DNA from: Lytechinus pictus
Lineage: Eukaryota
Assembly (NCBI RefSeq): GCF_037042905.1
Contig: NC_087245.1
Coordinates: 3,908,001-3,972,000 of the forward strand
Direction: 5' to 3'
DNA length: 64,000 bases
Shown here: in pieces, positions 4,656-61,936 of the stretch
How the letters are laid out: the number at the start of each line of letters is the position of its first letter
How positions within the stretch are numbered: position 1 is the first letter of the stretch
The notes under the pieces: generated by a model
The model's database searches: none
What the model was told of the DNA's origin: nothing
The model's input: only the letters and a program-made list of their open reading frames with translations
Program-made: the position numbers and the translations under genes

Positions 4656-4891
4656 AGATGACAGATAAGAAATATCTATTTGTTTTTCTGTTATTTTTTG
4701 TTTGTTTAATTCACCCATTTATTCCTATGAAGTTTATATATTTCTTTACTTTGTCTAGTTAAAATGATTTATTATGCAGGTTTTGAGATTTATTTTCCCT
4801 TTGGCCAACAAACCATTTAAAAGACCATTGAGTTTTGGGTTCCTTTCGACATGAATTATTAAGTCTTCATTTTATTTTCTCTTGATTACAG

Positions 4892-5006
4892 GAAAGATGA
4901 CAAAAAAGAGGATAAGAAAGATGACAAGAAGGATGATAAGAACAAGGATAAAGATAAAGAGAAGAAGAACAAGAAGGAGAAGAAAAAGTACAAGACTAAA
5001 TTAGAG
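4892..5006 (+). CDS. Internal coding exon, Lys/Asp-rich (KDDKKEDKKDDKKDDKNKDKDKEKKNKKEKKKYKTKLE); parent gene uncertain
   Basis: Strong acceptor TTTTATTTTCTCTTGATTACAG and donor GAG|GTAAGA. The 115 nt form 1 nt plus 38 open codons with synonymous variation, so this is not a simple microsatellite. It ends in phase 0. Its upstream exon is not seen in the window. Confidence 0.8.
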
Positions 5007-20229: not shown

Positions 20230-21329
20230 ATCTATCTACTCTACATGATAGTGTAGTCTTTATTTCCCTCTGAATAATTTCTTTGTTTACATGTTAGGAC
20301 TGTCTTGTATCTATTTGCCTGTCAAAATCAATCTTTCTTTAGTGTCATTATCAACTTTTGTTTTTCTATTTATACTTCTTTCTTTTCTCCTATATCTTGC
20401 CTCATCTCCCTATCATATACGCCCCCCTTTCCTGTCTCTGTAATTCATCTTGTCATCTGACCATAATAGTGTTTTTCAACTAGATATAAGGCCCTTGCAC
20501 TTTTGAATGTTCCTTTTACCTGTCCAAACGAATTTCTCATTGTCACTTTTCACTCAGGGTTTTGAGTAGTGTGACAAGAATTCATGTTGTAATCCCATAC
20601 ATCAGATATAATTCTATCATATGCTTCTTATATTCTTGTATATGTCTCAGTATCAGATCAATGCTTTAGTCCCAAATGTAACTTTTCTTGTCAGGAGAGT
20701 GACAGTATACTTCCTGCCAAGCATTCTGGTCCCCCCTCCCTCTCTCTCTCTCTCTCTCTTATTTCCTTTTCTCTCCATAAAAACTCTACATTTCTTTCCT
20801 CTCACATATTTTTCCCTGGATATTTTTTCTTGGATATTTTTTTTGCTTCTGGAGCTATACCTATTCAGTAATATTACTTTCAGTGTTTAATTGATTTTTT
20901 TTTTAAATGATGGTGTGTATATTTTATATGTGCACTTAGTATAGATTTAATTGCTGTACATGTAGGTTAAGTTTATCATAAAATAGACAGGTGATATTTT
21001 AACTGAACAAAATTTTCAGCTTATTTACTGCAGGATATCAGATGTTTGTTACTTGAGAGTAGAATATACAAGCATAACCTCTATCTATTTTTATATCACT
21101 TTATATTTCAACACAGTTCTCAACAGCTTAATTTCCCAGGTAAAAGTTGTGATGTACCTGTATTGATTTACTATATATTTTTTCCTCTTCAGCTCCTCCT
21201 TTTTCTTTCTCTGTCTCTCCATGTCTGTCTCTCCCTCTCCTTTCCTCTCTTTTTAATGAGTTTTTCATCACATCTACAATGTACCAACACGAAGCTCCAT
21301 TGATTCTTCTTGTCACAACGCACAAACAC

Positions 21330-21839
21330 ACGGTGATGATATAAATAGGACTCCTTTCTCAATGAATCTCACTCTCTCTCTGCAATCCGGTCGAGCTAGA
21401 GCACGGCTCACATCCTCCGTGCCTGGCTACATCCGTTTAACTTCCCTCCTCTCTCTCTTTCCTCTTCTCTTTATTCTTCCTCCAAATGTATATGCTCTCG
21501 ACTGACAGAGGATGCCCAGTGTTAAACGCCATGTTATCGTGGGCCTGGAAAAGTAAATATTGTACACATGGAGTCTGATATTGTCAAAACTTTGAATGGA
21601 GGGATTGCCTTGGTATACCTGTGGAATACTATAGCTATCAAATATTTGTTATTGGATGTTTGATCGATACTATTCATGAATCGGGTCTCACTTTAATCAC
21701 CAAGTACTTTAAATGAATGAATTGTGTACCATATCATTGACCTTGAATGGAAAACCATATATGTGGATAATCTACAAGGATTGTTATATTGGAATCTTAC
21801 TTTCTATTGTGATCGGTTCAGAAATAAAGTTGGCCTACT
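21330..21839 (+). promoter_or_regulatory. Candidate promoter and 5' leader of the MALRRTFK exon
   Basis: TATAAATA at 21340-21347, CT-rich tracts and local CpG enrichment (21385-21540) directly upstream of an ATG exon with a perfect donor. The TSS cannot be determined from sequence. Confidence 0.45.
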
Positions 21840-21863
21840 ATGGCACTGAGGCGTACCTTTAAG
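21840..21863 (+). CDS. Candidate first coding exon (MALRRTFK) of the NCKAP5-like gene
   Basis: ACTATGG start context, 8 codons, perfect donor AAG|GTAAGT, and phase 0 compatible with exon 61869. Confidence 0.6.
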
Positions 21864-23521
21864 GTAAGTACATTTCTAACTTGATCATATATATGGTCCT
21901 GAATTTCTACTTTTTGGTTTTAATTCAATGGACAACAGTAAAAGATTTCCTTGTCGTCATTTTCATGAAAACAGCAAAATTGATAGGTCAACAATTTGTT
22001 GTTCATCAGTTGCCAACGATACTAGTTACTTTTTACAGGTCATTGTAAGGACCAGGAGGAGGACAGAAGAAATGTTTCTTGTATACTCCCTTCTTTGAAG
22101 TACATACCCTATGGTTGTAGATTATTTGCTTCAAACTGCAAGTATTTTACAAAAATGTCTTGGTGAGATATGAAGTAAGTACTTCTTCAGTACTGAAAAG
22201 AAAATAGTGAGGCTTATTGAAATAGAGAAAAAAATAAGAGAAAGCAAGAAAGAGAAAGAGAGACAGTGGCAGAGTGAGAGAGAGAGAGGGAGATTTTGGA
22301 TTTTGCATAATGATGGTCAATTCACAATTACTGTAAATTGGAATTCAAGAAAGGTTTTATTGGGAATTACTTTTGTGAATGGCTAGTTGATTCTAATACT
22401 AGTTATGGACAATTAATATACAACAGAATGTATGCATTTACAGGTAGATTCTTAGTTTGAAGTCCATTGACACTTATCCTCCTCTCCATCACCTCCTGTC
22501 GTAAAGCATATAAATATTGTATTGGACAACCTCTTTAATAGCTGATCAAAGAGGTCAAATGCATCCTTTAATCCATCAATAATTGATGTCTTACCTTTTG
22601 AGCTTGACTAATGGCATGTTTGCATACCTGACATCAAAGATGCTTACTGCCAAGCGAGCGTTTAGAGAGTTAGACACCGGTGGCATTAGGGATCAATTGA
22701 AGGAAAATGTTTCTCCTTGCAGTAGATCAGCTGGCAGGTTTTCAAGGTCATTACATTCAGATTTCTCAAGAGTGAAGGAGACAGGATTTAATGGAAGAGC
22801 ACAAGGGGGTGGTAAGTTGGGTAAAGATTGGAGTAAATGGTTAAAGGGGAGAGAAATTGAAGGAATATAGGAGGGGAAAGTGGTTGAATAGAGGGAAAGA
22901 ATTAGAGAAGGAGAGAGATAAAGAAGGGAGGGGCAGTATTCTTAATAGGTTGAGGGGAGAAGACCAAGTTCTGTTTATCCAGGATTAAGAAACCTATTCT
23001 ATATCCCAGTGTGAGAATATTAGTATTTTTTCAGAAAAAACTTAGCTCAGTACTATATCTGGGGATGAAAGTCCCTTGTTTGATATAAAGGTGAATAGTT
23101 TTGACAACATTTTTGATGCAATTGACATTCCATTTTTGTTATAAATGTTTGTCTTTGAAATAAAATACCTGTTCTCCACAAAGTGATAAGACAAAGTGTA
23201 TTTCATGCTCATGTTGCCTGAATGAAGAGGTTCCTATAATAAAAAAAAGAAAATGTTTTTGTCATCAACTTTACTGGTATTTGAGTGATGCCATGGTTCA
23301 GATTAGCTTGAATGTTTCAGACTGTCAGGCCGTGTTGTACATAAGAAAGCTTGAATCCTAAAACTGTTCCTAAGTTCTTTAATCTAGCTCACATAATTAT
23401 CTCCCCTAACTTCTAATTATGAGTAAAGAGTGAAGACACATATTTCAAGAAATTTATGATATCTATATAAGATATGAAGTCACTGAAATTAGATATTAAG
23501 AAATAAATGATTTTCCAAGTA

Positions 23522-23571
23522 AGAGAGAGAGAGAGGGTGGAGAGCAAGTGGGGGAGAAGGGGGAGAGAAAG

Positions 23572-23602
<31 letters not shown>

Positions 23603-23616
23603 AAAAAAAAAGAGAA
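23522..23616. repeat. Purine-rich (GA)n/(GAAA)n tract
   Basis: Direct reading of the sequence. Confidence 0.85.
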
Positions 23617-24456
23617 AGGGGGGGTCAGAAAATAAAGAACAGTAAAGTCCTTTAAAGGAGGCTGTGCAGAACCTGTTAAAAATAATTTGTTTTTTAGATG
23701 CAACTGTTAATGAGAATCTTAAATGGAGGTATTGTAATCGCTCACAACTTTGTGTACGTACTTCACACACCATAATGAGATAGTGGAATGCAGTAATAAA
23801 TAATTTCCCCTTCCATAATTTGGTTCCAAAATCAAATCTGCAACTCTTCATGCCAAGCGATTGTTACGGAATCCACAGCAGCATTCTATAGTGTAAGCGC
23901 ATTGCGATGTAGGAGACAGAAGTCTTGCTGGATGTTTACAGATTGAATTAGTGGTCAATTTGAGGGGGATTGCTGCCCCCTTCAGCGTGTTGCAAAGTTT
24001 GATACCGTAGCTTGCAGGCTCTTTCCTTTGTTTCTCTTTTAAACACTGCAGAACTAATTTCTTGCGTAAGTAGGCACATCAATCAGCGTTGTTGTATAGT
24101 TCGTATTCAGGCTGATAATCCTCTTTTCTGAGATGTTCTGCTATTTTTTTAAACAATTTCATCTTTTCTGTTCTGTCTAAACTCTGTTTTTCATCTTTTA
24201 TCCTTTGGAAGCAATTCATTTGTCATTGTATATAAAACAATTCAAATAATTGCAAAGAGCAACTGAAAAAGGAAATACAAAAGGATTTTATGCTAAATAT
24301 TTGTCTTAGCTCTGTCACTTATATTTTGTTAGTATAGAGACATACCTACTTGATTGTAAATCCAAGTATTAAAAAAAGGGGAAAATCATCCTTTGATTTT
24401 CAAAAATTATATATATATATATATTTGGTAGATATTCCACGTGTTGAAGTAATATT

Positions 24457-24638
24457 AAGAGAAACAAGGTTGAAACTTTCATGCTTTAATCCAACAAAAT
24501 TTATTGAAGTCCACAAATTTTCGATGAGTACATACCGTCTTTATCACTTGATAAAGACGGTATGTACTCATCAAAAATGTGTAGACTTCAATAAATTTTG
24601 TTGGATTAAAGCATGAAAGTTTCAACCTTGTTTCTCTT
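24457..24638. repeat. 182-bp near-perfect palindrome flanked by (TA)n
   Basis: 90-bp arms, a 2-nt spacer (CT, 24547-24548) and 3 mismatches. (TA)n runs lie at ~24408-24424 and ~24640-24670. Confidence 0.95.
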
Positions 24639-24639
24639 T

Positions 24640-24671
<32 letters not shown>

Positions 24672-25382
24672 CATATTTCAAAGAAAAAAAAGATGGAGAA
24701 AAAAGTCAATATGACTTGTTGAAAGATAAAAGAAGAACCCCCTTTCTATTTCTGACAAAACTCAAGTTGTATTGATTTTTGCAACAATTTCGAAATTATT
24801 AAGATGTCCTTGCTTGAACTCAACTAAGGTTAAAACTAATACAGCATCCTGTTGAAATGCTTATCCCATTTATTACTCACTCATGTGTAGAAATCCAATT
24901 CTTTTGTGTCACTGGGCAGTGAAATTCTTATTGATTTTTGACTAGTGTAAAAATTAAAACTCAGAGAGGAATGACCTCTTTCCAACCAAAAGGATGGATG
25001 CACCTATCCTCTTTAAAATCCTTCACAATTTCTACGTAATGAGCTAAATTTGACCCGATTCTGAAGCGGAAGAAACAACGCGGCTTATCCCCTTTATACA
25101 TCAATGATGTTAAACTTTAATTAAAGAATTAGAATTGTATTGCACTTTTATTGGTTGGGGATGATGCTGTACTGTAGCAAACTTGCTTATAGTGTGTTTT
25201 TATTGAGTTGAATTGAAGGTCATGGATTCATTATTTCATGGGTTCAGGATGAATGTGTGCTTAGTTTTGGTGAATGAAATTATGTTTAAAGTTTCATGTT
25301 TATGGCATTGATATTGTTGTGATATAGGTGATGACGACTACAATGGTGATGATGATGGAGAGGGTAATGATGATATTAACCA

Positions 25383-25915
25383 ATTATTTACCCAGTGTAG
25401 CTACTTTGGGTTTATCTGCTCTACCAGCGGGCCCTGCATAACATAATATGTTTACCCTTCTCCAATCTAAATGCTGAGCGCCTAACAAGAAGGCAGAAGG
25501 TCCCTTTTTTAAGTTACATATATATAGCACTTCATAACGTTGGTTTCTAAGTGCTTTACATTGTAATTATTATTACCCTGGTCATATAGAATCCATCTCT
25601 ATTCCACACATAAAGTGCACCATCTCCGCTCTCGAAGGAGTATCCTGGCCAGGCAACCGTTTACGGTGCACATGTGCCAATCTAATCACATCCTACCTGG
25701 TACCCATTTAACACCTGGGTAGAGAGTGACAAATGTGGATAAGTGCTTTGCCAAAGGACGTCAGCGCTGGGTGGGATTCGAACCTTGACCCTTGGTTTAA
25801 GAGTCAAGTGACTGAACCACTACACCACAACACCTCCACACAAAGTCTCACCTCCACATAAGTCTTTGATGTGACTCGACCATTCATGAGGCAGGCTCTA
25901 TACCACTGAGCCACC
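25383..25915 (-). mobile_element. SINE of a second family (host), interrupted by a nested SINE
   Basis: Segments 25383-25514 and ~25860-25915 join across AAGT. The minus-strand head is GGTGGCTCAGTGGTATAGAGC (A box). The tail CTACCAGCGGGCCCTGC (plus-strand reading) is shared with the 13099 copy. Confidence 0.65.
25515..25836 (-). mobile_element. tRNA-derived SINE nested in another SINE
   Basis: Minus-strand head GAGGTGTTGTGGTGTAGTGG...GGTTCGAATCCCACC and core GTCCTTTGGCAAAGCACTTATCCACATTTGTCACTCTC...CAGGTGTTAAATGGGTACC, as in the 4376 copy. Confidence 0.8.
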
Positions 25916-26043
25916 ATGGTAATAATGAAGAAAAAGATGATGGTGGTGGTGAAACTGGCGATGGTGAAGCTGATGATGATAATGATGATGATGAAGATGG
26001 TGATGGTGATGGTGAAAATGATAGAAAAGATGATGATGATGAT
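25916..26043. repeat. Degenerate (GAT/GGT)n microsatellite
   Basis: Direct reading. It explains the Met-rich spurious ORF. Confidence 0.85.
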
Positions 26044-28518
26044 TGTTTTTTTAAGATATGAACAATATTTCTTTTTAGTTAGGGTTACAAGGATTTTTAT
26101 CTTGTAGGATGAAATAATGGGTACCAGCTGAAAGATGATAATTTTCTTTTACAATGTTCAACTGAATTGATGATTAAATTCGAAATGTGATAATTGAGCT
26201 TTAAGTCATTGATCACTAACTGTGATGTGATAGAAGTGCATTCTATACAGCATGGCTTTTGAATAGATTAAAATGATCAACTAACGATTGCATGAGATTA
26301 TAATGGTTCCAGGTGCGTTCTTTAGAATGAATTGATAAGTATCGACGATGGTTGTTTGTAAACTGGCCAGGTACGCTCAGCTCAACAAGGCCATCCAGCA
26401 ATTAATCTAACGGTCGTGGAAAAGAGCTGACATTTACCGTTGTGGAGATAAAGGATTTATTGGGTGGAAGGAAATTGAATAAAAATCCAAAATGATAACG
26501 GCCATCGCTCAATTTAGGAGAGCTTTTTCGTTTGTTTGAGTATTAGGAAGAACTATGGGAGTTTATGAGGAGGGGGGGGGGGAGATAGGGAATGAAAGGT
26601 GACAAATGGTGCTATCAATAAATGGTTTGTATCTAGATAATGCATAAGAACATAGATTTTAAGCTGTTGAAAGACAGGACACAGATGAATGCAAAATAGA
26701 ATTGAAACATTTTGATGAAGGAAATCACAATAATGGACAATATTTGGCCTAATTGTAGTTGGAAGAGATAAGGTGATCTACTTACCTGGACAGTTTTCAT
26801 ACCTGTTTGAGTGTATTGTACTAGAAATATTTTACAAAGGCTAATGTCTAATCATTTTTATATTTACAGATTGTTTATACTGGTTTGCCTTCAACATTGT
26901 TGCAAAAGAAAGGAGGCCTCAAAGTGAATCTGGAACTATTAGCTCCTCCTGAGGATTTCAAGCAAATTTGCCCTTCGTGGTGATGCTAGATTTCACAGTA
27001 ACCCCCCCTTTTTCCCTTATATACCCATTTGGCAAATACACCTGCCAGTTGCTAGCCTACCCTTCAGATAGAAAGCTAGGTTTTTTTGAGAATCATGTAT
27101 TAGTCTAATATATGTGTTTTACAGATATTCACTTGAGGCTGTAAAACCAGGGTTTAGGTTGCACTTAATTAAATGTAGATTAAGAGGTTTCAAAGAAGAT
27201 AGAAAAAAAGCCATTGTGCTTGTGGAAAGCCTAATAGAAAAAAGAACATAATTCATTTCAATTGCTTTTCATACTGATGCTTTAAATGAAGATGCTATCT
27301 TGTTTTATAATGTGTCTGTCATAATTTTTTATATTTACATTGAGCAACCGATACCACATTCCCAAAGGAATACTTAGGAGTTAAATTTCTAAATATGATA
27401 AAATTCTCATTTTCCCTGCTGAGTGATGTTGGCCATTAGCTGGATGTGATTGAACGAGATTGATTTTACTCTGTTTGATGATAAAAAGAAGATGACTAAA
27501 AACTAGCCATAGATTCAGAAGTATGCATTTTCAAGAATGAAATAGTGAACTATATTATCTGACTTGTCTAGATTTTTAATGTACGATTATTGAAAACCTA
27601 GATATTTTGTAATTATTCAACAGCTATTATTATAGTTTTCAAGACCTATATGAAAGGATAATATCTTAGAGATTCCTGGACAAATTAATACTAGTGAAGC
27701 AAAATTTGTCTGATTGATTGATTGATCTGAAAGTCTTAAACTAATATTAGCCATCTTGTTTCTTCATAAACCCTTCTGCTTTATGAAAATGAATGCCATC
27801 AGCAATTTTAATTTTGCAAGAAGCTCCACCCCTATCCTTACACCATACTGTAGGCATACCTTATAGTGTAGCTCTATTTAGTATTTTAGGAATGCAACCT
27901 AATATCAAAGTTTTGTGACCTGTGGATCTTCCTAGAAGCTAAGCTGCAATTGATATCCTCTCTTCTTGTGGTTCCTTTTCGTGTAAGATTTATTAAATTC
28001 TGAAGTTTAACTCTATCCATTTTATCTTCATAGCTCATCTAAAACTGAAGGGGGAATACATCGCCCCCTCCAGCTATAGCCCTGCAATAGAGCGGGGGTC
28101 TTGCCTATCAATTATAAAGCCTGGCGGGCTCGAAATTACATCGAATCAAAATTTGTTGTGGTTATCGATGAAAGGAACACTGCAAATCAATTGATGCCTC
28201 AAGGGAAGAACCTGCTATTATTACTAAGATATATTGGTTTCTTTCTCTAGATCACATTTCAGGTTGTAATCACAGTTATGGATGTGGTGTACTTGTATTG
28301 AATTTGATAAATTGCGATGGAAAAGGATGTTTTGAAAATGAGAGAAAAAATTAGTGAAGATATATTATAAGTTTTTATTGTTCCGATTGTAAATTATCAT
28401 ATTTATAACAGAATACAAGACTGGATTTAGCATAGATTTTTTCATGCTTTTTATTCGTAAAACTCAATGCTTTCAAAAAATTTATAAGCCACAGTATATT
28501 GAATTTTTTTATTTTGTT

Positions 28519-28764
28519 AATAATAATAATATTCTGCTTGAATATAGCTCTGAATACATGAGCTTTGCAGATATATTATTGCCCTAGACATCGGATCCTG
28601 GCTTGCCTGCATACCATGTATGTACTTTCTCCACTCCCTGGGGAGCATTCCAACAAGAGTTCTGAAACTCAATTACTAGGCATACTACATAGGCTTTTGC
28701 ATTTACCGGGTACCCATTTAACACCTGGGTGGAGAGTGGCAATGTGTGGATTGATGCCTTTGCC
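28519..28764 (-). mobile_element. 5'-truncated SINE
   Basis: Core GGTACCCATTTAACACCTGGGTGGAGAGTGGCAA is nearly identical to the 25515 copy. It has a (TAA)n tail and lacks the tRNA head. Confidence 0.75.
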
Positions 28765-30746
28765 TTTGTATCTGATATAATAATCTTCAAAACACTTGCT
28801 GAGAAAATTCACACATATGAGAGTGTACATTGTATCAAAGATGTGAATGAGTACGTGTATTGAATATTGGAACAAGTGTGTCCGAGGAAAGGTAATGAAA
28901 TGTCAAAATAAATTACTTTGCTAATGAACAGAATCACTGAACGAAATATGACAAGTGCTTAGAGACTGGTATAAATGCAATCATGAAGAATTTATTTGAT
29001 ATCAGATTTTATTGTCATGCTGACGCAACAATATTTCCTCATACTTTCCGCTCGCAGCTCCAATAAACACAACCTTATAAAAGTGATAAAGAGGACGGTT
29101 TCCTTGTTGCTACGGGGTTACCATAAAGAGGATGCTCTCTCCGCTTGGATAAGGTCCTCTGATCTTGTTAGAGAATCATCTGATTAGTAAATTTTGCTCC
29201 TTTTCTTTGAGATCTTCCGCTACCAATATCCAATCTGTTAAATTCATCCCTGACCAAGGTGTAATGCCTCCTCGCTGTTGTCAAATTGAATTTACATCCC
29301 ATCCCAGGATTCCCAGCTATTTATGAGATTACATGTATCTCAAAGGTTTGTGTTTGGAAAAATGATGCAGAGATTTGAAGATAGTTTCTTATATCTTTGT
29401 AACAAACTACTGTCATAGGCTATTTAGAGAGTTTTTAAGGTTTTCAAAAGTTCATTTAGTTTAATTCAGAGAAAATGTTTTAATTAGTTGATGGAACCTT
29501 CATGGTATTATTCAATTTTCATAGGCATAATTACCATGATTTATATGTGTATGCATTTAAACATCCTCTTTAAAACTCACTGGAGAATGATGCAAATAAA
29601 TGTGATCACACAAGGGCAGATAATGTTCATTTGAGTATTGAAAATAAATTGTGAATGCTGAAAGCTGTCATTATACATGTATGACATTTATTAGGTCAAT
29701 GACTTTGATAATTTCCTTTCACCTTATATGGGTAGCAGGTATTCTTTTGGTTTAAATTATGTAAAATTCATAACCAACTCTTTAAATAATGAAAATGTCC
29801 AATCTGAAAGGAAAAAACCCTATTTGATCAGTTATATTGAAAGGAAAACACTATTGTATTGATAAATAGCAAAAGGTATTAAATTCTAAAATAGAACCAT
29901 TCAGAGAATGCTTATATTTTCTAAATGTAGAATCTTGCAGATATTTCCTTTGATTAAATATGAAGCAATGACCTCATGACCTTTATGATATTTGATCTTG
30001 GTGGACTCTCTTTCCCCAATGTCTTAAGTGTTTAAATTGATAGGCATTCAACATATTTGTTTCATTTTTTAAATATTTATTTGCAATGAGCCCATACGTC
30101 TTATATTAGAACAAAGACCAGTTTCTGATATAACCTAAAGACTTCAAATATCTGTTGAGATAAATACATCTGGAAAAATCTCAAAATAATGGCAGATGAT
30201 CTGTTATCACTTTGGGTTTCCTTTGATATGATGTTTTAATATACATTTAGGTGAAGGTTAATCTATTGAAGATTAATTAACTGTGAAATGAAATTATACA
30301 TTAATATCGCTGACATTTGAGTGATTATATAGATAAACAGGAAGGTACTCCAGGCTTCAGGCAATATTTCATGAGAGGAAATAACCTGGCAGTGAATATT
30401 TCAACATGCATATTGTCATTACAACATATAGACATACATGTATACTGTGAGTAGCCTGTAAAATTCTTACCCAAAGGCTTTAGGATTTTTTAAAACATGT
30501 ACATGCCTTACATTTACTGTATTCTAGACTAGTATTTAAAGAATTCATTTTTTAGTGTAAAAATTGATTTTATACCTTTTATATAATATTTTAAACCTAT
30601 ATTTTTCCATACAAGAGTGTAAATATGTTGAGAAGACAATTGAGGTGCAAAATAGCACAATATTAGGCTTGCACAATATATTCCACATCCTTAGGTGTTA
30701 ATAATCCTCTCTGCATGGGAGATGTTTTTGCCATTTGTTGGTTTAA

Positions 30747-31227
30747 AGAAGAAGGTCACCCTGAAGAAAAGTTTGTTGCAAAAATAGCAGATAAATAATG
30801 AAAAATATTGGTGAAGGTTTGAGGAAAGTCCATTAAAGAATTAGAAAATTATCAGAATTTTAAATTTTGGATTTGTGACGTCATAAACGAGCAGCTGCCC
30901 CATATGTTATGTAGTATAAAATGCATAAATTTTAATTTTGTAATGGTTCGTGATTTTCTTTAGGAAATGGTGTGAAATGATTTGTCTATTGATATTATGA
31001 AGGTACAGTAAACAACATTTCCAATTTTCAGAGAAAATGACATTTGATTGATTAATTACCATACGATATGTAGGAAAGCTGCGTTCATATGACGTCACAA
31101 ATCAAATAATCAAAATTCTAATAACTTTTTCATTCTTTGATGGATTTTTCTCAAACCTTTGGCAATATTCTTTATTATTTTTTCTGCTATTTTTACAATA
31201 AACTATTTGTCAGGATGAACTTCTCCT
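30747..31227. mobile_element. MITE, Kolobok-like (second family)
   Basis: TTAA|AGAAGAAGGTCACCCTGA ... TCAGGATGAACTTCTCCT|ATAA. Imperfect inverted arms of ~150 bp include TTTGTGACGTCATA / TATGACGTCACAAA. Confidence 0.8.
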
Positions 31228-31699
31228 ATAAACTTAAGATCTAATATTTCATTATATGGTTTCTTTAGAATAGTGGTTTGTGAAATTTCATTAGTGACCT
31301 AAGGTAGTTTTCTGGAAGCAAAATGCCATCTTCGGTGCTTGTAATGTTAGCCATTTGCAGTCAGTTAATGTCATGATGAATTGGAATTGGGACAATTTTA
31401 TATGGTTACCGTGCCTTTCCAAAGCCTTCTGGCAATGCTTGTAGTGATGAAATATATCAGTGTCATGCATGTTTTAAGGGTCATTATTTATGTTCTTGCC
31501 AATTAACATAGTTTTTTATTTTACTAATATATGAAAAAAATGCCCACAGTGTTATAGTGATAATAAAAAGTAAATTGTTCTATAATTGACTGTTTTGCTC
31601 ATTTGCTCTTTGAGAAATTGTGTATCTAGAGTAAACTAATTTGAAGAAACTTCTCATTTTTTTTCCTGTTACCATCAGAGCAATTGGTCAGAATCTTAA

Positions 31700-32565
31700 A
31701 GATCCAGACCGGACCCGAAAATGAAATTGATAAATTATATACCAATCGAAAGCTTATAAGCTACTAAATACACCAAGGTATGCTTTATGCATTTTCACCG
31801 CTTCCCAGCTGAGTATTTTGCTTAAGAATATTCCAATTATCGGGTTTCGAACCCCGCTTAGAAAATAGGCTTTATTGTGCTTTTCACCTGCCTCGAGACC
31901 GTGACGTCACGTTGTGTAAGAAGCGTTGTGATTCCATAGGTTTGTACACAAAAAAACTGGGTGATTTTTTTGCTTTCCAGATAACGCATTTCATTCTCTT
32001 CACTTCTATCACAGAGGGATATCACATATATTTTTACCCACAAGCTGGAATTTATGAAATCTGCAGTTTTGAACTAGTTTTTGCCATATTTTATTTTCTG
32101 CTTATTTGGCGCAGATTTCAATTCTATCTGCATTTAGATTATGTATAACAACTTTTCCTGACATAGCAATTTAGGCCCAATAAGAGCCAAACAAAGAAAT
32201 CACAAAAAAGGTAGTGAATAGTTGTAGGTTTACAACAATTTGAACAGTGAATAATTTTGAGTGCCATTTTCATCTGAAAACGAAAAAAAAAATGGATTCA
32301 TAACATGGAAATGGAAGAAAATACCCAATGCTTTTGTACACAAACCTATGGAATCACAACCCTCCTGACACAACGTGACGTCATCATTTCCAGGCGACGT
32401 GGGGGTGCTCAATCGAAGCGTACTTTGGAGGAGCAGTTTCTTTGATTTTTATTTAATATTTTTAACTATTGGAAGGAGATATATATAATATTTTTGGTAT
32501 ATTCGTATTGTATGAATCATTACCTTTATTTTGATATATGATTGTTTTTACACCGGTCAGGGTCT
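31700..32565. mobile_element. Non-autonomous DNA transposon with TTAA TSD, Kolobok-like (third family)
   Basis: TTAA|AGATCCAGACCGG ... CCGGTCAGGGTCT|TTAA, plus an internal ~65-bp inverted repeat (31901-31970 versus 32318-32383). Confidence 0.75.
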
Positions 32566-35500
32566 TTAACAGAATATCATGTGACTTCATCAGATGCTAT
32601 TCTTGCTATAGGCAACATATCTTGTCAAACAGCATAGACCTGTCATAATATGTGGGATAGTATGCTAAATGCGACTGAAGGATCTAGTCATTCTAAATAA
32701 ATGGGGTTGATTTACAAATCAAGACGGGTAAATTGGCAACTTTGAATCGGAAGGAGGATAAATAAATGCTTGATCATGTAACCTAGCGTCGTCGGTTTGT
32801 TTGATCTTCAGGTCCTCGGCAATAGATGGCTTGTGACTCAAGACTGATTCGTAAATTCATCTTGTTTACAACATTTTGTGTGTGACTAAAGTGCGGGAGT
32901 TATTGCATAGGTGGTATTGGACAGACTGAAGTTGAGCAGTCTTCCTGGAAGGTGTTTGGAAAGGGGTGGTAACATCCAAGAATATCTATAACAAGTTTTT
33001 TTTAATGAAAAATATAACTTGCAGTAAAAATTTTCTGTTGCAATCTTAAATTTTTCAATTGGTGCATTTAGGTAGCCAGTTTAATTAGCCCTTATTGAAT
33101 ACAATCTTTTATGGGTATATTCTTATCTAGAATACTAGTGATTTCAAGAGGGTAAGATTAGAATCCCCAATGGCAATGTAAGCTCACTGCATCAGTTTCA
33201 AATTGTGTATAAGATCTCAAGATTCCTTTGGTCGACCCCTCCATGAAACAGATGGAAGGAAGAAACCAATGGAAGGTTTTTCCGAACCACAAAGGTACTA
33301 GGGAACATTTTGTCAGGTTTTAAGCTTAAGAAAATGTGATACATTTGCAGCCAATCTGTGAAATAACATCAATTCTGTTGATAACTTCTGAGTCTCACAG
33401 AGAAATTTACTATTGTGGAAAAATTTGTTATTTTGTTATAGAAATATTAAGGAAACCAAGAAACAGTGACATGGAAAAGGAACAGTTGGCTTTGCCGGGG
33501 GGGGGGGGGGGGTGATATAATGGAGGTATTAAAAAGCAATGCCAACATAACAAATAGTTGTCAAAAGTTGCTCAATTAATATATGACTATCTATATCATC
33601 TATAAAAAAATACAAGTAAAACATAAAAGATGAAGCTAAAAAAGGAGGAAGGAACTTGACCCTAATAAAAGATGAATATAAACAAGGTCGGTGATATTCT
33701 ACTTTTTTATTAAAACATGTCTTGAGTTATGGCTGTAATCACAAACTAATAACCATAAACCTTCTTTTGTCAATCATGAATAAGATGAGCATGTGTAATT
33801 TTCTGCCATATATGTTAAATGACCTACTATCAGGGTTAGATGTGAAATTATTATTGTGTGCAGGTAGGCCTATAAAACAATCTTATCAATTTGTCTGTGG
33901 TATTGGATAATAGTTATTATTTAAAATGTGTAGTTTTTTACATGTACATAGTTAGTATAATTGTTTGCTTACAAGAAGTGCAGGGATATTGGTAGGAAAC
34001 ATTGATGAAAGTCCTCAAAATATATTCACTGTAAGGATTCCTAGATACTTGATGCATAATTCCTTTGCCTACATACAATAATGTCCATGTTGAGTGTACT
34101 TGGATCATAAAGACCTGGAATTATTTTTCCCCTTGTGAATTATGAAGTCAATTTCATTGTACATCCAGATGATAGACAGCTATAGCCATGGAGATTATGA
34201 GGTACAAATTACAACATTTGAGAAATATTGATGCAAATGAGTAGAATTGACAAAGTGTTATTGCAAATCTTTGAGTAGCATTTTAGACATCCTGTATATT
34301 TATTCTTCACCTTATATGCCATTCCTTGTTCATTACACCTCCTTAATTCCTGCTGTTTACATCGATTCCCCATCAAACTTCCAATATAATTAAATTGTCA
34401 ACCCTCCCAGGCCAGCCTTCGACTCCTCACGCACGATTTGCGACTTTGTTGCAAAATCCAGCGTAAACTTATTTTCATTATCGCTTTAGTGTTTGGTTTG
34501 CTTGTGTATCTCAAAACGTTATTACTCCTGATATTTCCTGCCTGGAGATATTATGCTTCTGTCACTCAAGAAGACACATCACAGCTTTTAAGCACAGAAC
34601 TAGCTTTCTGTCATTTAGTTTCAGAAATAGATTTTAGTTGCAAACATTTTAATCAATGATATTACCCGAAGATGTGTATTCAAGTTATCCATTACCATGG
34701 GAATGATCCTCCTGTTTCTAAGGTTCACCCATTTACAAACAGTTCTCTCATTGGAGGGTTTTATTGAAAGCATTCTATTCAAGTGGATACAAAATTAGAA
34801 TCTTAATTGCCTCTTATATTAAGGTATTTGTTTCTATAATAGTAAAGAAAAACACCAGTTACTGCATGACTTTCCAACTATAATGGGTATATTTAGTTTT
34901 ACTGTATTTTTTATGATGCAGTTCTTACCATAATTTAAACAGGTTTAATGTCACTTCAAAGCACAGTATGTTTATGACCAGAAGGTTACGTTGACATATT
35001 CTTCTGCACATTTAGAAAATTCCCACAGCTGAATGTGAACAGATTGGATTTTGTACATACCCTCCAGTATTTTCTATCATGACACATCACTTTATTTTTG
35101 TTGTTGCTTTTTTTTTATTGAATTTGGGTCAGCCTCTTTTTAAGGTTTCATCAAATGTGGAATGCAAGGTGTGGGACTGCTCTGGATGCCGGTCAGATTT
35201 ATGAAGAGAATTTGTCAGTCAGCAAGCTTTTCACACCTGCATTTTATCTCACACGAAGTGATAAGAGCCAAGAAGAAATTAAAGGAAAAATTTAAACTTG
35301 TCTCTAGATATATGAATTTATTTTAATTGAAGGTGTAAGAAATAAAGAAGTAAATTAATATTTTTTACATTAGACACAGATGGAGATTCATTTTCTTTGT
35401 GGTACATCTTATTATGTTGTTCTTATCTCAATCCATTCATCTTGATCCTATTTCAATCCTAAGTTACCTAACTTGTGAGCTTTTGAAGCTTCCTTTAAGA

Positions 35501-38500
35501 ACTGAAGACACTTTCCTATTATCCTGTGTATTGTTACATTCTAGTTCCATTAAGGGAGCTAAATATACTCATTAAATTTTCATCAAAATGCAAGTACCTA
35601 TTTGATAGAGACGCACTTAAAATTTGTAGTAAGGAAAAGAGGTAGATCAAAAACTCAATTGTTGGAAAGCACTTTACGTTTGAAAGCTGCATAATTCCAG
35701 GTGCTCGTTTTATGCTATAGTATAGACTTCTCTGTTCTTGTTTGATGTTTGGATGATAAAGAAAAACAGAAAAAGTATGAGAGTAAATTGAAGGGATTCA
35801 TAGTCAATTGGTTTGAATTGCAGAATACAGAGAGTAAATTTCAGCAAATTATCATTTGATATATAGGCTTTATTGAACTCCTTCATGATAATATATGCAA
35901 GATTAATTTCAGCTGGTGTACCATGAAACCCACTTCACTCTTCTCCTTTGCCATGGAAACCTTCAGAAGGTGCTTCTACATGTATATGCTTTTATATGTC
36001 TGCTTTAATCCTTTATTGTTCTTGGTGTAACATTGCTTCCATGCAGAAATGATTGAACATTGATGTTTTCATCACGCTATTTTGTAATTGGTATACTACT
36101 GCTTTCAAGTGTTATTTCAATTTTCAAACAATATGGATAAAGAATCACAGTGTGTATGTAAAACATCCACAGTCTATTATTAAAATAACCTGGGATTACA
36201 ATGATACTTATTTCAATCAGGAATATTAAAAAAAAAACATTACTGAACAATAATCAGTAGGATATGAGGGGCTCATAAGACAGGTTGGGCTTCTAATGGC
36301 CTAGCAAAGGAAAATCAATCACCCTGGGATTCCCATCTTGTTCATAGTGAGTAATAGTGAAAGATAAAAGTCTGCGACTGAACCAAGGAGAGGGGGGGGG
36401 GGCAAATGAAACCATTTGTAATCAACAGAGATGCTTTCACAGTTTACATGTAAGATGCCTGCTAAAAGACCAGGTCACAGGTGTTCTTCAAATCTTTATG
36501 TCCTTTTTCAGGAGTTCATTAATTGCTGCAACCTCAGTGTGCGAAGATAGTATGCCTGGTGTTAGCGAAGCCAGCTTATATCGGTCAAAGTATGAAAAAC
36601 AATAATATGAAGAGAGAGAGAGACAAAAACGTAGTTTGATACAGGCAGACATAGCTTGACAGACTAAACAGTAGAAAAAATATTGTAAGGAAAGTATACG
36701 AGACACAGGTAAAGACAGGTACCAGTAAAGCCTTAAAATTAAGTGGTCCCTTTCCGAAACTTGATTTGTTTTTTTTTCATTTTTGTTCTTAAAGCCTACT
36801 TTTTCCTGTTGTGACCCCCACCCAGTGCATGTCACTATTCTAATTTATTTCTTGATTATATGAATGCTTGTGCCTTAAAACATGAATTATGTGATGAATA
36901 CAAAGGAAATGTCTTTTATTTGAGAAATTTTCTGATTTAACATCAAAATTTATTTCAATTGGGTGCCCTATCAAAATAAAATATCTGCATATTTTGTCTT
37001 GTTTATATAAACCCTACTAAGCATGGGCTAAAGATTGTATGATATACTCTCTGTTAGTAGCTTTCTGATAGTCTGTATAGTAAGTACTCATGGGGCTCTT
37101 AAAATAAAAATGAGAAAACACAGAGAAACAAATTTAAACTGTAATGGCTGAAAAATGCCAAATGTATATTTCTATTTGTTGAAAAACACATTCACTTCAA
37201 TGTCTATTACATTTTTGTAATATTGGAATGTCAGATAATTGATACTCGAGTATAATTTGCATTACTGATCCATTTCCAAAGCTTTAGAAGGGTTTTAAGC
37301 CTTCCTGATGCAAGACATGGCACAGTGTATTTTAATTAATCCCCAAAGAGCTCAAAAATTATCATAAATGTAAGATATATTTAAGACATCTTTGAAGATT
37401 GTGTCTATCAGGGGTTTGATATCTCCTGTTGGTTTAAGTTGAATTGATAAGTTATTTCACTCAAGTGATAAGCACTTAAAGGAACTCTATGCAGTGTCAA
37501 CAAGAGAAGAAAAAAAAGCAGGAAACTTCTCTACATAGTGCTGTGTCAACAATATAAAATATCAATGGCACATTGCTAAAGGAAATGGTGCAAGCCATAC
37601 AAGCACAACAAATGCTCCCAGAAATTGAGACATTTTATTGAAGCTGGAAGCCATGCCTCCTTTTTCACAAGCAAATCTTACTACCAGTGTGTACTCATCG
37701 TGCAGTGTAGTTGGTTATGAGGAATCTGATATGACAAATCGAAGGCCGATATTGATTGCTATGGTGCATATATTCTCACATTCCATGGTTGTCATACTTG
37801 TAAGAGCAGGATAACTTTCACACTTTCGTCACTTGCCTTCTTTGGATTTTATAACCTGGAAACAAGGTTTCAAGTTCAAACCATCCTTGTGCTCAACCGA
37901 TTCCATGGTTGCTGTAAAAAAAATAGTGCCTTTCAAACGTAAACAATTCATGTGTGTAATCAATGGAAATAAATGAATTTGGATATTTGCTAATATAAAG
38001 TTTAAAATGTTATGAAAGAATACAAACTACATTGGAATGATAAAGTCTTTTGTTTGTTGAGGTGACAACTTGTGAGTTGTTGGAATATTTTTGTGAATTT
38101 TTTAGGGGATACTCCAAAATAAAAGAATCAACTGCTTGGTGGAAATATCTTTTCTTTTCTTTTCCTGTTATTTATCTCTTTAAGTTTTCACTTTCTATAA
38201 CTATTCATGTTAGAAAAAAAACGATTGCATGGTGATTAAAAAAAAAATCACTATTTCACATTATTTCACATTATTTTGTTCCCCAATCTCAGTAAGTAAT
38301 TTTAAGGGTCAGAATTATCATTTTTGAAACTATATCGATACAGAGATAAAGCTTGTCAGATTATTTTTTCCTATATAGTGACTATAGAAAAATAATTTTT
38401 TTAAACTGTTGATCTTCTTCTCTCTTAGCTGTATTATGGACATCACATGCTCTTGTTAATGTATGGTGATGAAATTAAACCATTTAAGACTATTTAAAAT

Positions 38501-39857
38501 TTCAACATTTTGCATTCCTCACCATCAAACTGCCATACCTCTAATCCCTCATTGAGCTGAAATGACATTCAGTGCTTTATTACATGTCATATATAGCTCA
38601 AATTGATGGTATTAAAAAGTAAATTGGGATTGTAATTAGATTGTATTTGACGTAAATTTGCCACACTACTTGTGGCAAATCTCTGTGCAAATGTCAGCTT
38701 AGAATTATTGTGCAGTCTACAGTGTTTAGTTGCTGGGGGATTTTAGAGAGCATTGAGGGGGAAACCAGGATGACGATGAAAAGCGCGCTCTTGTGATGCT
38801 GGAAAATAGGTTGTTCATACTTGAAGGCTGATTAATTCCCATCCTTGTAAATTAATCAGTGCAATTTTGTATCAGTGGCAAGGGAGGATCCAAAGTTCAT
38901 TCTCTCTCATCACAGGAGATAACACTTGTGTAATTCCCTATAAAGATCATGAAATATCATTTTCATGGTAATATGAAGTTTGAATTTGATATAAGCCTGA
39001 CAAATCTTTCAACAAGTTAAGCTGTTTATTATCATGTAATCTAAATCAGGTGATCTCTTAAATTTATTTTTAAAATTAATTATTGATGAATATATAATTG
39101 TCACTGGTAAACCTTCAGAAGTTTTTATTTTCATAATTGTTAATTTTAACGAGCATAGTTTTAATGGAATTCTCCCTGTTTGTGTGTTATAGATCTTTCT
39201 TTAAAATCCCTAATTCAATCACCTTGTTTCTTTTTTTTACTGTCATTGATTATTATTTTGATTTGTTTAAGTACATTCAACTTTTGAATTGAGAGTCATA
39301 CTGACTACTAGTAATGGAAAAAATCTTGCATCATTGAATCTTGTGTTCTTACAGACGTAATTCCCTTTTAATTTTCAACAAATGAAATGCATTGCTGTGC
39401 AGAACATCATTCATAATCATATATCTTTTTATTACCTCCAGAAAAAATAGTCTCTGAATAAAGTAAATTTCAAGATTAAATGTAATATTTCATTTTTTCA
39501 ACCAAGACTGTAAAATCAAAAGAATTAATCATTTACGACATGTAAAGGCTGCTTTATAAATTTTTGGATTATAAAAGGAACAAACTATTTTCTCTGGCCT
39601 GAAACTGAATGAGACTTGGAAATTATTTCTCTTTTTTAAATAGCTCCCTCTTGTTTCCAAGTTTGTAAGTCTTTAAAGTTGTCATCAGGACTTGGCTTAA
39701 GCTGTAATTCAGAGTATTACAATAGCTGTAATTACATTTGAAAGGAGAAATTAATAATATCAAATTGATATCATAATTAAAGTGTTTATTTTTATTTGCT
39801 GATTGGTCAATCCATAATGATGATTGTGTGCTTATATTTCTGCAAGTAAAAGTTGAA

Positions 39858-40008
39858 CTCTTTTGTTTATTTTCCTTTCTCTTTCTCTTGTGTAGGTAAG
39901 TTCTGATGTAGGCCTAATATGAAACCACTTTGCTGCATTGAGCCTCTTAAATGTTAAGAAAGGTAATCAGGTGACAGCTTTTACTTATTATATCCAAATA
40001 AGGTAAGT
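39858..40008 (+). other. Candidate recursive splice site (ratchet point) with cryptic RS-exon
   Basis: Pyrimidine tract CTCTTTTGTTTATTTTCCTTTCTCTTTCTCTTGTG, then TAG (39893-39895) directly abutting GTAAGT (39896-39901). Downstream donors are AAG|GTAATC (39963) and AAG|GTAAGT (40003). Confidence 0.65.
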
Positions 40009-40858
40009 GGGAATATTAATTTAGAGAATGGTGACAACAAGGTATTAGAATCACATGTAAATGTATGATACTTTGTTCTTGACGGGCAATCACCAGTTTA
40101 CTATATACCCCCTTCAAATTATTGCCCCTTGCCTAGATAGTCTCAGAGTTAAGTTAATATTGATGTTGCTGACACTATCTATTCATGCTCTGTTGAAAAT
40201 CATATACTCCCTAAGGATAGAATAACCAGGCCATGTCAAGGGGTTGTGTCTGATAGGTCTAAGGTTTGAGGCCACCACACCTGCACCTCATTTGTACAGC
40301 TTTGTCACAATTCCTGGCTATTCTCATCTCTTGTCTCACTCCCTCTTTATTTTTTTAGAAAACTTTTTATGCTGAACCCTTGCTACTTGGAAATATGAAA
40401 TCAATTAGAATATATCATTGCTCGTTGCACAGTTAGTCATGTCACAGAGAAAAGAATTAGTTTTGTTAAAACAAGCTTGATCAGTCATCTGCAAGTGATT
40501 TCAAATTCTAGATCAAACATTTTGCCCCTTTTCATCAAAAACTTCTCATTAACATATAGTGTATGATATTGTCCCAATGTTAAATCTTTCAAAAATGATG
40601 GAAAGTACTTCATGTTTTGTCAACTATATTATGAAGTCTTATGCTGTAAATTGCATAGATTCAAATAAATCCAGATCAACTCTAGCATGTGATAAATAAA
40701 ATTCTGGATTTGATTTAATCTGAAAGATTGTTTTTTTTTTCAATCTTGAAGGATTCACAATCAAATCTGTTTGGTTTTAAATAAATCTTTAAGATTCAAA
40801 TCAAAATCTCATATCTGATTTAGGCCTATCCCTTACTACAGTCATTGTGTATAATTTA

Positions 40859-42589
40859 CATACCTGCCAACCATTCCGATTTTGGCGGAATTATACCGAT
40901 TTTTCGACCTCCATTCCGAATTCCGAATTTTAAAACCAAAATTCCGATATTTGGGTTAATCAATATAGTGTTGAAATTATTGAAACGGCTGTATAATGTG
41001 ACTAACGCATGCACGGCTGTAAGATGCGACTAACACATACACGACTGGTGCGCACGGCTACGCAAATGCGCTAGCTACACGATATACACAGAGAGCGACT
41101 TTAAACGGCGCGCGAACACTGCTAAGTGCGCAGTTCCATTGTAAATACATGTGAAAATTAACGAGCGTACACGCAACGGCCGCACTTAGGGCGCTACATT
41201 TTGAGGTGTTGTCGTTAGCGTTTACTTCCGGAAAAAAAAATGGCGGCTGACATCGGCTAGCGAAAGAGCTAGTTTTTAGTGAGGACATGTTTTCATAATC
41301 CACGAACATCGGAAAAACCGTGAAAAAGTCACCTTTTTAGACCCCTTGTTTCCTAACTACGATGTTAAGAATCACCGATGGTGATATTTTTTACGGGAAA
41401 CATGGTGATTTAGGTAAGGAAATCTCACTTTTTATTTGAGGTTTTTGCCCATGTCGCCTGATGATTTTGTAGTGTGGGAGTGAGTTAGTGATGTAGCGTA
41501 CATGTCTAGAGTGTGTTGGTGATTACAGTGGTATATTGCTGAGTCTGCTGATGATGATGAACGGCTGAAGGTCGCATGAACACCGGCCCCCGCCCGGCCG
41601 CATACCGACGCAATTTTAACATTGATCTGTACTTTATTTTTTGAATAATTGTCAATTTTTTGAGGAAGAAAGATTATTAACTTTCGATCTCGGGTTGAGC
41701 CTTCGGAGCGGAACGCCAAATCTACTTTACTTGCTTCGCTTGCCTAAACTCCCGGCGCCCGCCCAGTGGCTGCGCCTCAGCCTCCCCGTCTTACCGGGGC
41801 ACCGCAAGTGCAGTGGTGGGTGCGGGTCGGGCGCATGCAGCCGTTAGTTTCGGCTCCGTTTTTGTCATGGTTGAATATCTGCTTTCTTCTACCAACAAGC
41901 ACTTATCCAATGTAGGTTATGATATAACCTTGTCCTCAGTCAGTAACCCCTGTGTGGTGAAATAACATGAATAAGACAATGTCAATGTTTGGCTTATTTT
42001 CTCTTGATGCATGAAATGATAGATAGGCTGGATAATAAATGTTTGATTTTTTGGCTTGTCAGTTTTTAATACAGTAGGGATAACTTAAATCTAAATTCAT
42101 CATAAAAAATATGCCTTGGCCCAAAACTCAATTGAAATCTTGAAATTATTTTTTGTCTAATTAAAAAGAGAATCTATGGAGAGGAAGATCTGCATCAATC
42201 TCACTTTCCAGCAATAGAGGGCCTCACAAAAAAATGCTCAAAATCAAAGTTTTTAGAGAGCTCTGATGAACAAGAAAAATTATCCCTAAGTCTATATAGA
42301 TTTAAATGAAAACAAATCACACCTGCATGAAACTGGGTGTTTTTTGTCACAGAAGTGATATTTTAAAGACCCTTTTTTTTATTTTTAATTGATAAATGAA
42401 GGTAGACTTTACATGTCGGTCATCCTCTGGTGTGGTAAAGAGGGTAAATTTGCTTTGAAAAGTGTAGGGAAATGCTACTTTTACATGCTGAAAATGCAAA
42501 GAGTCCCTACCGTTGGAGCGGCCGGACACCCGCTCGGCGCCCTCGGAACTTTGATACTGATTTTTTATTATCAAAGGTTGGCAGGTATG
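40859..42589. mobile_element. Non-autonomous DNA transposon (hAT-like TIRs), CpG-rich
   Basis: Perfect 14-bp TIR CATACCTGCCAACC / GGTTGGCAGGTATG and subterminal TTCCGA repeats at the left end. No transposase ORF. The TSD is not clean (AATTTA / GATTTA). Confidence 0.8.
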
Positions 42590-61868: not shown

Positions 61869-61936
61869 GAGCAAATGGCTCACCAGATAGAGGAGCTGAA
61901 CAGACAGATCATAGAGGAGAGACAAAATACAAGAAG
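61869..61936 (+). CDS. NCKAP5: Internal coding exon, coiled-coil (EQMAHQIEELNRQIIEERQNTR+AG), NCKAP5-like N-terminus
   Basis: Acceptor TATTTATTATTTGCAG and donor AAG|GTAAGA, 68 nt, phase 0 to phase 2. The peptide resembles, from memory and not from a search, the vertebrate NCKAP5 segment EYMDSNKYIEHLLTQLEEQHRSLWR. The exon is well supported and the gene name is tentative. Confidence 0.6.

Follow-up and report, generated by a model that had tools for sequence, protein, structure and literature searches.

A predicted intronic recursive splice site (ratchet point) with a cryptic RS-exon in a ~40-kb intron of a sea urchin gene

The stretch of DNA that was analysed (from here on: the window; 64,000 nucleotides of the Lytechinus pictus genome, read on the forward strand) carries on its plus strand a short coding exon with its start codon and, some 40 kb further downstream, a predicted second exon. 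The features that delimit the intron between them are the following (a slash marks a splice junction throughout):

21458-21863, plus strand: upstream exon 1, comprising the 5' UTR and the start codon (ATG at 21840), encoding MALRRTFK and ending in AAG (from a contig of run X1, the sequence and its translation)
21864-21869, plus strand: donor GTAAGT of the host intron, read from the sequence; the exon end reads ACC TTT AAG/GTAAGT at 21863/21864
61869-61936, plus strand: predicted exon 2 of 68 nt (EQMAHQIEELNRQIIEERQNTR followed by AG), with acceptor tttgcag/ and donor AAG/GTAAGA (from splice signals and phase)

The 3' end of the host intron, i.e. the exon at 61869, is a prediction from the splice signals, the phase fit and an indirect argument on contig breaks that is given below. 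One small correction concerns this downstream exon: it is predicted to span 61869-61936, with the donor GTAAGA starting at 61937. The two spare bases (AG) at the end of exon 2 are completed by the single spare base with which the next conserved exon, L007:2463-2527 (EKLSVARLQRELAKAKSEGNM), begins, and the reading frame is continuous from the one to the other. A protein search with the 61869 exon and its flanking codons gave no match. The initial annotation had divided the intron 21864-61868 into two parts of about 18 and 22 kb. Under the present exon model the two parts would measure 18.0 and 22.0 kb. The exon-1 donor matches the end of a contig; the exon at 61869 (EQMAHQ), as well as the peptide MALRRTFK, occurs in no annotated isoform that was retrieved.

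Large open exons are located around 100 kb downstream (L011:4883-7525 and L012:8239 onward). With 97% identity they match a protein of Lytechinus variegatus that carries the NCBI name 'microtubule-associated protein futsch-like' and that shares a cluster with an L. pictus entry. For the homologues from urchin and starfish, local tblastn placed the N-terminal coiled-coil exons in L007, L008, L010 and L011. The best explanation is that the host is the sea-urchin 'futsch-like' coiled-coil gene, and that the 40-kb intron is the first intron of a transcript that starts at a distal promoter. The NCKAP5-like label that had been given to the gene obtained no support from Pfam: the family PF15246 found no match in the large exons, in the full-length orthologue P0008, or in the genome, the last of these being a weak result as a control search was matchless too. 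The exon model also bears on the public annotation, because the public protein models retrieved for the gene contain neither exon 1 nor the coiled-coil exon at 61869. More generally, the N-terminal coiled-coil exons (61869-61936, L007:2463-2527 and L008:736-936) are absent or truncated in those models; the exon in L007 matches the starfish N-terminus, and the L. variegatus protein model X1 begins one exon later. Upstream of exon 1, at 4881-5005, there is an open exon rich in Lys, Asp and Glu (ttacag/...TTAGAG/gtaaga), which may belong to a neighbouring gene or may be a further upstream exon.

Near the middle of the 40-kb intron we found an acceptor that is fused directly to a donor, with further donors shortly downstream:

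39853-39893, plus strand: AG-free pyrimidine tract of 41 nt (88% pyrimidine in positions -20 to -4; the last AG before the tract is at 39851-39852)
5' edge of the pyrimidine tract at ~39853, plus strand: possible branch region TTGAAC
39893-39901, plus strand: ratchet point TAG/GTAAGT, the acceptor (TAG, 39893-39895) being fused to the donor (GTAAGT, 39896-39901)
39896-40002, plus strand: cryptic RS-exon of 107 nt, which shifts the frame and contains an in-frame TGA (39920-39922)
39963-39968, plus strand: weaker internal donor AAG/GTAATC, read from the sequence
40003-40008, plus strand: donor AAG/GTAAGT that would define the RS-exon, read from the sequence

The tract, the TAG/GTAAGT motif, the donors at 39963 and 40003 and the TGA at 39920 had all been pointed out in the initial annotation; they were re-read base for base and their positions agree. 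The sequence likewise agrees with the earlier claim that AAG/GTAAGT is regenerated when the MALRRTFK exon (ending in AAG at 21863) is joined to 39896, and this rebuilt 9-mer is the same as the exon's own donor. The rebuilt donor and the donor at 40003 are both AAG/GTAAGT over positions -3 to +6, and thus are identical 9-mers. Translated in the phase of exon 1, the RS-exon reads VSSDVGLI followed by a stop, the TGA being codon 9. The site thereby has the make-up of a ratchet point, a pyrimidine tract and a YAG fused to the consensus GTAAGT, and that of an RS-exon, a downstream 5' splice site that bounds a short, frame-breaking and stop-containing cryptic exon.

The segment 39600-40300 is single copy, with one match (itself) in the 811-Mb genome, and the nearest transposon to the ratchet point begins only at ~40859, which argues that the site is not derived from a repeat. 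That transposon is a young interspersed repeat that covers 40859-41500 and beyond; at least 40 genomic copies were found, 89-99% identical to each other and with a common start point, which lies ~960 nt downstream of the ratchet point. Two other origins of the motif were considered and rejected. A junction duplication ('mirage') is out: the sequences around 39896 and 40003 resemble the exon-1 donor over no more than the consensus of 8-9 nt, and the genome contains no other match to 39600-40300. An exon on the minus strand is out as well, the bases around 39894 giving neither a donor nor an acceptor on that strand. Look-alike stretches were not found in the other indexed genomes, among which there is no other echinoderm, and a comparison of 38500-42000 with Rfam yielded nothing relevant, apart from one sub-threshold snoRNA-like match at 41515. 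The motif GTAAGT occurs 16 times on the plus (sense) strand of the window and 6 times on the minus strand, and within the 40-kb intron 11 and 2 times, respectively; strong U1 sites may be in surplus on the sense strand.

The next long intron of the gene, between predicted exon 2 and L007:2463 (54,526 nt under the exon model), seems to be built in the same way, judged by its sequence. It contains:

L004:8083 (G000:C1:4000083; outside the window), sense strand: twin ratchet-like site ctcttttcttttctctgttgcag/GTAAGA (ctctgttgcag/GTAAGA; CAG/GTAAGA), at 55.3% of the length of the 54,526-nt intron

Within the surrounding stretch (L004:8055-8129, G000:C1:4000055-4000129) a GTAAGT is found 41 nt downstream, at L004:8124, and a stop follows straight after the junction. 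As exon 2 ends in AAG and has GTAAGA as its own donor, the twin site would rebuild the very donor 9-mer of intron 2, AAG/GTAAGA. Together the two sites cut the two introns into four segments of 18.0, 22.0, 30.1 and 24.4 kb. When a mild filter that asked for YAG, no more than one donor mismatch and a pyrimidine share of 65% or higher was applied to both strands of the 64-kb window, only 39893-39901 passed. Over the 155-kb gene span the same filter returned two sense sites (39893 and L004:8083) and one weaker antisense site that has no downstream donor; the antisense strands of the two long introns contain no such site. Both introns were also simulated jointly 1500 times, with a filter of at most one donor mismatch and at least 80% pyrimidine: at least one site was present in 141 simulations, at least two sites in 8, and one site with a GTAAGT 20-260 nt downstream in 5.

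A search of sequencing runs with 39600-40300 found no holder of the segment that is recorded as RNA; twelve runs of the class 'RNA?', from three studies, contained a fraction of 0.13-0.17 of the sampled words of this segment. Two sets of raw RNA reads (X14 and X15) and the runs X1 and X13 were aligned on 21000-40600 at 90% likeness. X1 is a contig set of RNA-like character and is guessed to be RNA; its depth drops about threefold at the exon-1 donor (calculated from bins), which argues for RNA as its source. One X1 contig (408 nt, depth 17.4) covers 21458-21864 and ends at the exon-1 donor plus one shared G. Past this donor the depth is ~5.6x on 21865-22307 (calculated from bin means), a 4.6x contig lies on 22379-22655, and from 22962 to 39311 the unique bins are empty or nearly so. 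Coverage is absent from 39312-39893, 580 nt, and is then resumed at the ratchet point by a single contig:

39894-40355, plus strand: X1 contig of 484 nt, depth 6.46, with 22 unplaced letters at its upstream end, reading through the donors at 39896, 39963 and 40003

The places where the X1 contigs end hint at a junction between exon 1 and 39896. The exon-1 contig stops after a G, which would be the point where the possible continuations diverge: GT... for the unspliced or the 39896-joined transcript, and GA... for the transcript joined to the 61869 exon, which begins with GAGCAA. For a true junction the alignment of the downstream contig is expected to start at 39894, because an AG is common to the end of exon 1 and the end of the intron. 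The number of unplaced letters would fit as well: 22 equals 30-6-2, the k-1 overlap of a unitig with k=31 less the GTAAGT (6) and less the AG (2), and a branch at k=31 could have arisen where exon 1 plus GTAAGT is continued by A (unspliced) or by T (spliced to 39896). In this manner the contigs fit a part-spliced recursive intermediate that still carries all three donors, with the junction deduced from the contig ends. The 22 overhanging letters themselves are not displayed, and a 21863/39896 joint is absent among the 15 of 176 joint rows that were listed. Frequent use of the 40003 donor in X1 is argued against by the continuity of the contig through 40003. Likewise, a 107-nt poison exon that is spliced at both ends, as would be included in mature transcripts if it were an NMD-coupled cassette exon, was not seen in these thin data: the sole contig over the RS-exon is unspliced at 40003 and the RS-exon is present in no annotated isoform that was retrieved. 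A linear saw-tooth was not seen in X1 either; the coverage, from contigs of a presumed-RNA library, is about 0 before 39894 and 6.46 after it, and ends at 40355.

The other runs cover the region in different ways. In X14 and X15 the depth on exon 1 is 0-0.04, i.e. exon 1 is not expressed, and for that reason these runs are uninformative on the 21863/39896 junction. In X14 a depth of ~1.8x was found on 39966-40600, all in one mate direction, though exon 1 is silent in this run. X13 (organism B, ~0.8% diverged where aligned) covers 21000-23551 and 40106-40600, with no piece over the motif among those listed. Within the intron, 28194-28847 and 30156-32771 are covered very deeply on both strands, by both raw RNA runs as well as by the contig runs, and the alignments there show many loose ends and inverted joints; these two stretches look like expressed high-copy repeats.

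The X1 contig can also be read in a way that does without re-splicing: 39896 would then be the 3' splice site of an ordinary alternative exon, for instance a long unproductive or terminal exon that runs from 39896 to at least 40355 and yields a short transcript with an open frame of 16 codons. We consider this rather unlikely, although the contig does pass straight through the donors at 39896, 39963 and 40003 up to 40355, X1 is empty on 40356-40600, and the depth of the contig is about one third of that of exon 1 (6.46 versus 17.4), which is high for a transient species. Against it, the 60 nt that precede 40355 lack both AATAAA and ATTAAA, and the contig ends there in a T-run, where assemblies break. 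Moreover, an ordinary or terminal exon leaves unexplained why its first six bases should be a perfect GTAAGT, why a second perfect donor follows 107 nt on, and why the same layout has a twin in the next intron.

It is very unlikely that the motif arose by chance and has no function, in which case the X1 contig would be unspliced pre-mRNA or contaminating DNA that was broken in the pyrimidine tract. The bare 9-mer YAGGTAAGT is near chance level, with 2 matches in the 64-kb window (both strands) versus 0.64 expected and at least 2 matches in 14 of 100 shuffles, and rare motifs will turn up when many windows are scanned. Genome-wide, the strict motif Y10-N-YAG-GTAAGT has no excess (32 matches versus 48 for the reversed control), and YAGGTAAGT-N20-50-GGTAAGT has 84 matches versus 524 for the reversed control, tandem minisatellites dominating both counts. 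At both of its ends the 39894-40355 contig meets a low-complexity tract rich in pyrimidines, a kind of sequence at which assemblies and alignments often break, and the X1 reads apparently were cut at skipped repeats, the inspected examples being purine-rich or TA tracts. On the other side, the site with its pyrimidine tract is more than chance: an equally good one was found in 7 of 2000 (order-1 Markov) and in 6 of 2000 (order-3) simulated copies of the 40,005-nt intron, and a site with a second AGGTAAGT 20-260 nt downstream in none of 4000. The architecture is thus statistically non-random; in addition, a second copy of the layout is found about halfway along the following long intron, and there only on the sense strand, and the X1 alignment begins exactly at the AG after 580 nt that X1 leaves uncovered. 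An internal promoter in the CT-rich tract near 39872, with an alternative first exon that ends at the 40003 donor, is more improbable still: if the 22 letters were colinear, X1 would start 22 nt before 39894 in the CT tract, like the exon-1 contig does at 21458, and the few X14 reads in 39966-40600 would be accounted for in spite of the silent exon 1, but colinear letters should have aligned, the contig is unbroken at 40002/40003, unlike a spliced first exon, and both the TAG/GTAAGT and the twin site of intron 2 would be left unexplained.

We thus favour the reading of 39893-40008 as an intronic recursive splice site (ratchet point) with a cryptic RS-exon in the ~40-kb intron, and predict it as such with a probability of roughly 0.65. 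It is preferred mainly because of the architecture, its repetition in the next long intron and the specificity for the sense strand, to which the hint of a junction in X1 adds some weight. The initial annotation had proposed that recursive splicing operates here: what stood is that the architecture is non-random, single copy and repeated in the next intron, and that the X1 contigs are consistent with a joint of exon 1 to 39896, a joint that comes from the contig ends. Several observations were counted against the recursive reading. No read or contig with the 21863/39896 junction was displayed; the donor of the RS-exon equals the rebuilt donor, whereas in flies and mammals the donor of the ratchet point is reported to be usually the stronger one (PMC8605326); the motif Y10-N-YAG-GTAAGT has no genome-wide excess; and the 61869 exon is a prediction that the retrieved annotated isoforms do not contain.

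If recursive splicing does take place, the following order of events may be envisaged. The pyrimidine tract with its TAG (39895) and the strong donor at 40003 would be recognised jointly as a 107-nt exon, after which exon 1 (AAG, 21863) would be spliced to 39896, a step at which the X1 contigs hint, so that the first 18.0 kb are removed and AAG/GTAAGT is rebuilt. The rebuilt donor, rather than the one at 40003, would then be spliced to the predicted exon at 61869, and the RS-exon would be lost together with the remaining 22.0 kb, leaving no trace in the mRNA. Should the 40003 donor win instead, a frame-shifting and stop-containing exon would be included, an outcome that was not observed.

This order follows the model for vertebrate RS-exons, in which definition of the RS-exon is followed by its splicing to the exon before it, and the rebuilt 5' splice site then competes with the 5' splice site of the RS-exon (Sibley et al. 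2015, as described by Blazquez et al. 2018, PMC6224609). The urchin site would share with it exon definition and the stop-containing isoform that inclusion would give; it differs in that only about ten intronic sites are cited for human in that account, in much longer introns of neuronal genes (PMC6224609). The ratchet points of Drosophila (Ubx, kuz, Bx, luna; 10.1101/006163, PMC8605326) resemble the urchin site in several respects: a pyrimidine tract-YAG/GTAAGT in a long intron, a short frame-breaking cryptic exon that is bounded by a downstream donor, a rebuilt donor of strong consensus, and segments of ~18-30 kb, the four urchin segments, under the exon model, being similar to the mean of 17,953 bp that is given for the recursive segments of Drosophila (Duff et al., preprint 10.1101/006163). 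The fly cryptic RS-exons are described as ~50 nt long, out of frame, constitutively recognised and then skipped, with a donor of the ratchet point that is usually stronger (Joseph et al. 2021, PMC8605326), versus 107 nt in the urchin (41 nt at the twin site). Further differences with the fly are that the urchin RS-exon donor is as strong as the rebuilt donor, that the host is a deuterostome, and that the urchin site is known mainly from sequence.

For sea urchins a prediction from computation exists: in introns >50 kb the density of ratchet-point motifs was 0.540 per 100 kb on the sense strand versus 0.066 on the antisense strand, an 8.2-fold difference (Shepard et al. 2009, PMC2773006, Table 2; computation only). 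The present site has a motif of that kind, also comes from a sea urchin and likewise lies on the sense strand. The 2009 work gives motif counts for introns >50 kb, without a named site or RNA evidence, whereas the present case is one site, accompanied by an RS-exon donor and a transcript hint, in an intron of 40 kb. The sea-urchin statistic in Blazquez et al. 2018 (PMC6224609) covers annotated exons only, as far as the text consulted goes. Searching the literature on recursive splicing with sea urchin, echinoderm, Strongylocentrotus, Lytechinus or NCKAP5 returned no characterised echinoderm site. The earlier statement that no site had been characterised in echinoderms or in an NCKAP5-like gene therefore holds for that search, and has to be qualified by the enrichment of ratchet-point motifs that was computed for the sea urchin in 2009 (PMC2773006).

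A bolder version, which we put forward as speculation and hold to be unlikely as a whole, is that each of the two long introns is removed via a single RS-exon near its middle, through which the donor 9-mer of that intron is rebuilt, that the intermediate accumulates to about one third of the level of exon 1, and that the second step is a slow, regulated checkpoint on the output of the distal promoter. If this were true, the checkpoint could serve, for example, as a timer in fast embryonic cell cycles, or as a switch between productive mRNA and a dead-end transcript. In that case echinoderms would gain their first recursive site with transcript support, and cryptic ratchet points of the fly type would be indicated for the base of the deuterostomes.

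Recursive splicing has been documented experimentally in Drosophila and in a handful of vertebrate genes, and the sea-urchin literature that was found consists of the motif count of 2009 (PMC2773006) and the annotated-exon statistic (PMC6224609), both taken from the portions of these papers that were consulted. The locus described here offers a defined site within reach of PCR tests, in an animal whose embryos are easily cultured and for which morpholinos and CRISPR are available, and such tests would reveal whether the ancestor of the deuterostomes already had fly-type cryptic ratchet points with RS-exons. With two introns that have one site each, it would also be a simple system for studying the competition between two donors. 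Elsewhere in the genome, four near-identical motifs made up of a pyrimidine tract and CAG/GTAAGT are spaced 3.5-6 kb apart on one strand (G000:C5:31528316-31541588, minus strand); these represent either another recursive chain or a tandemly duplicated unit.
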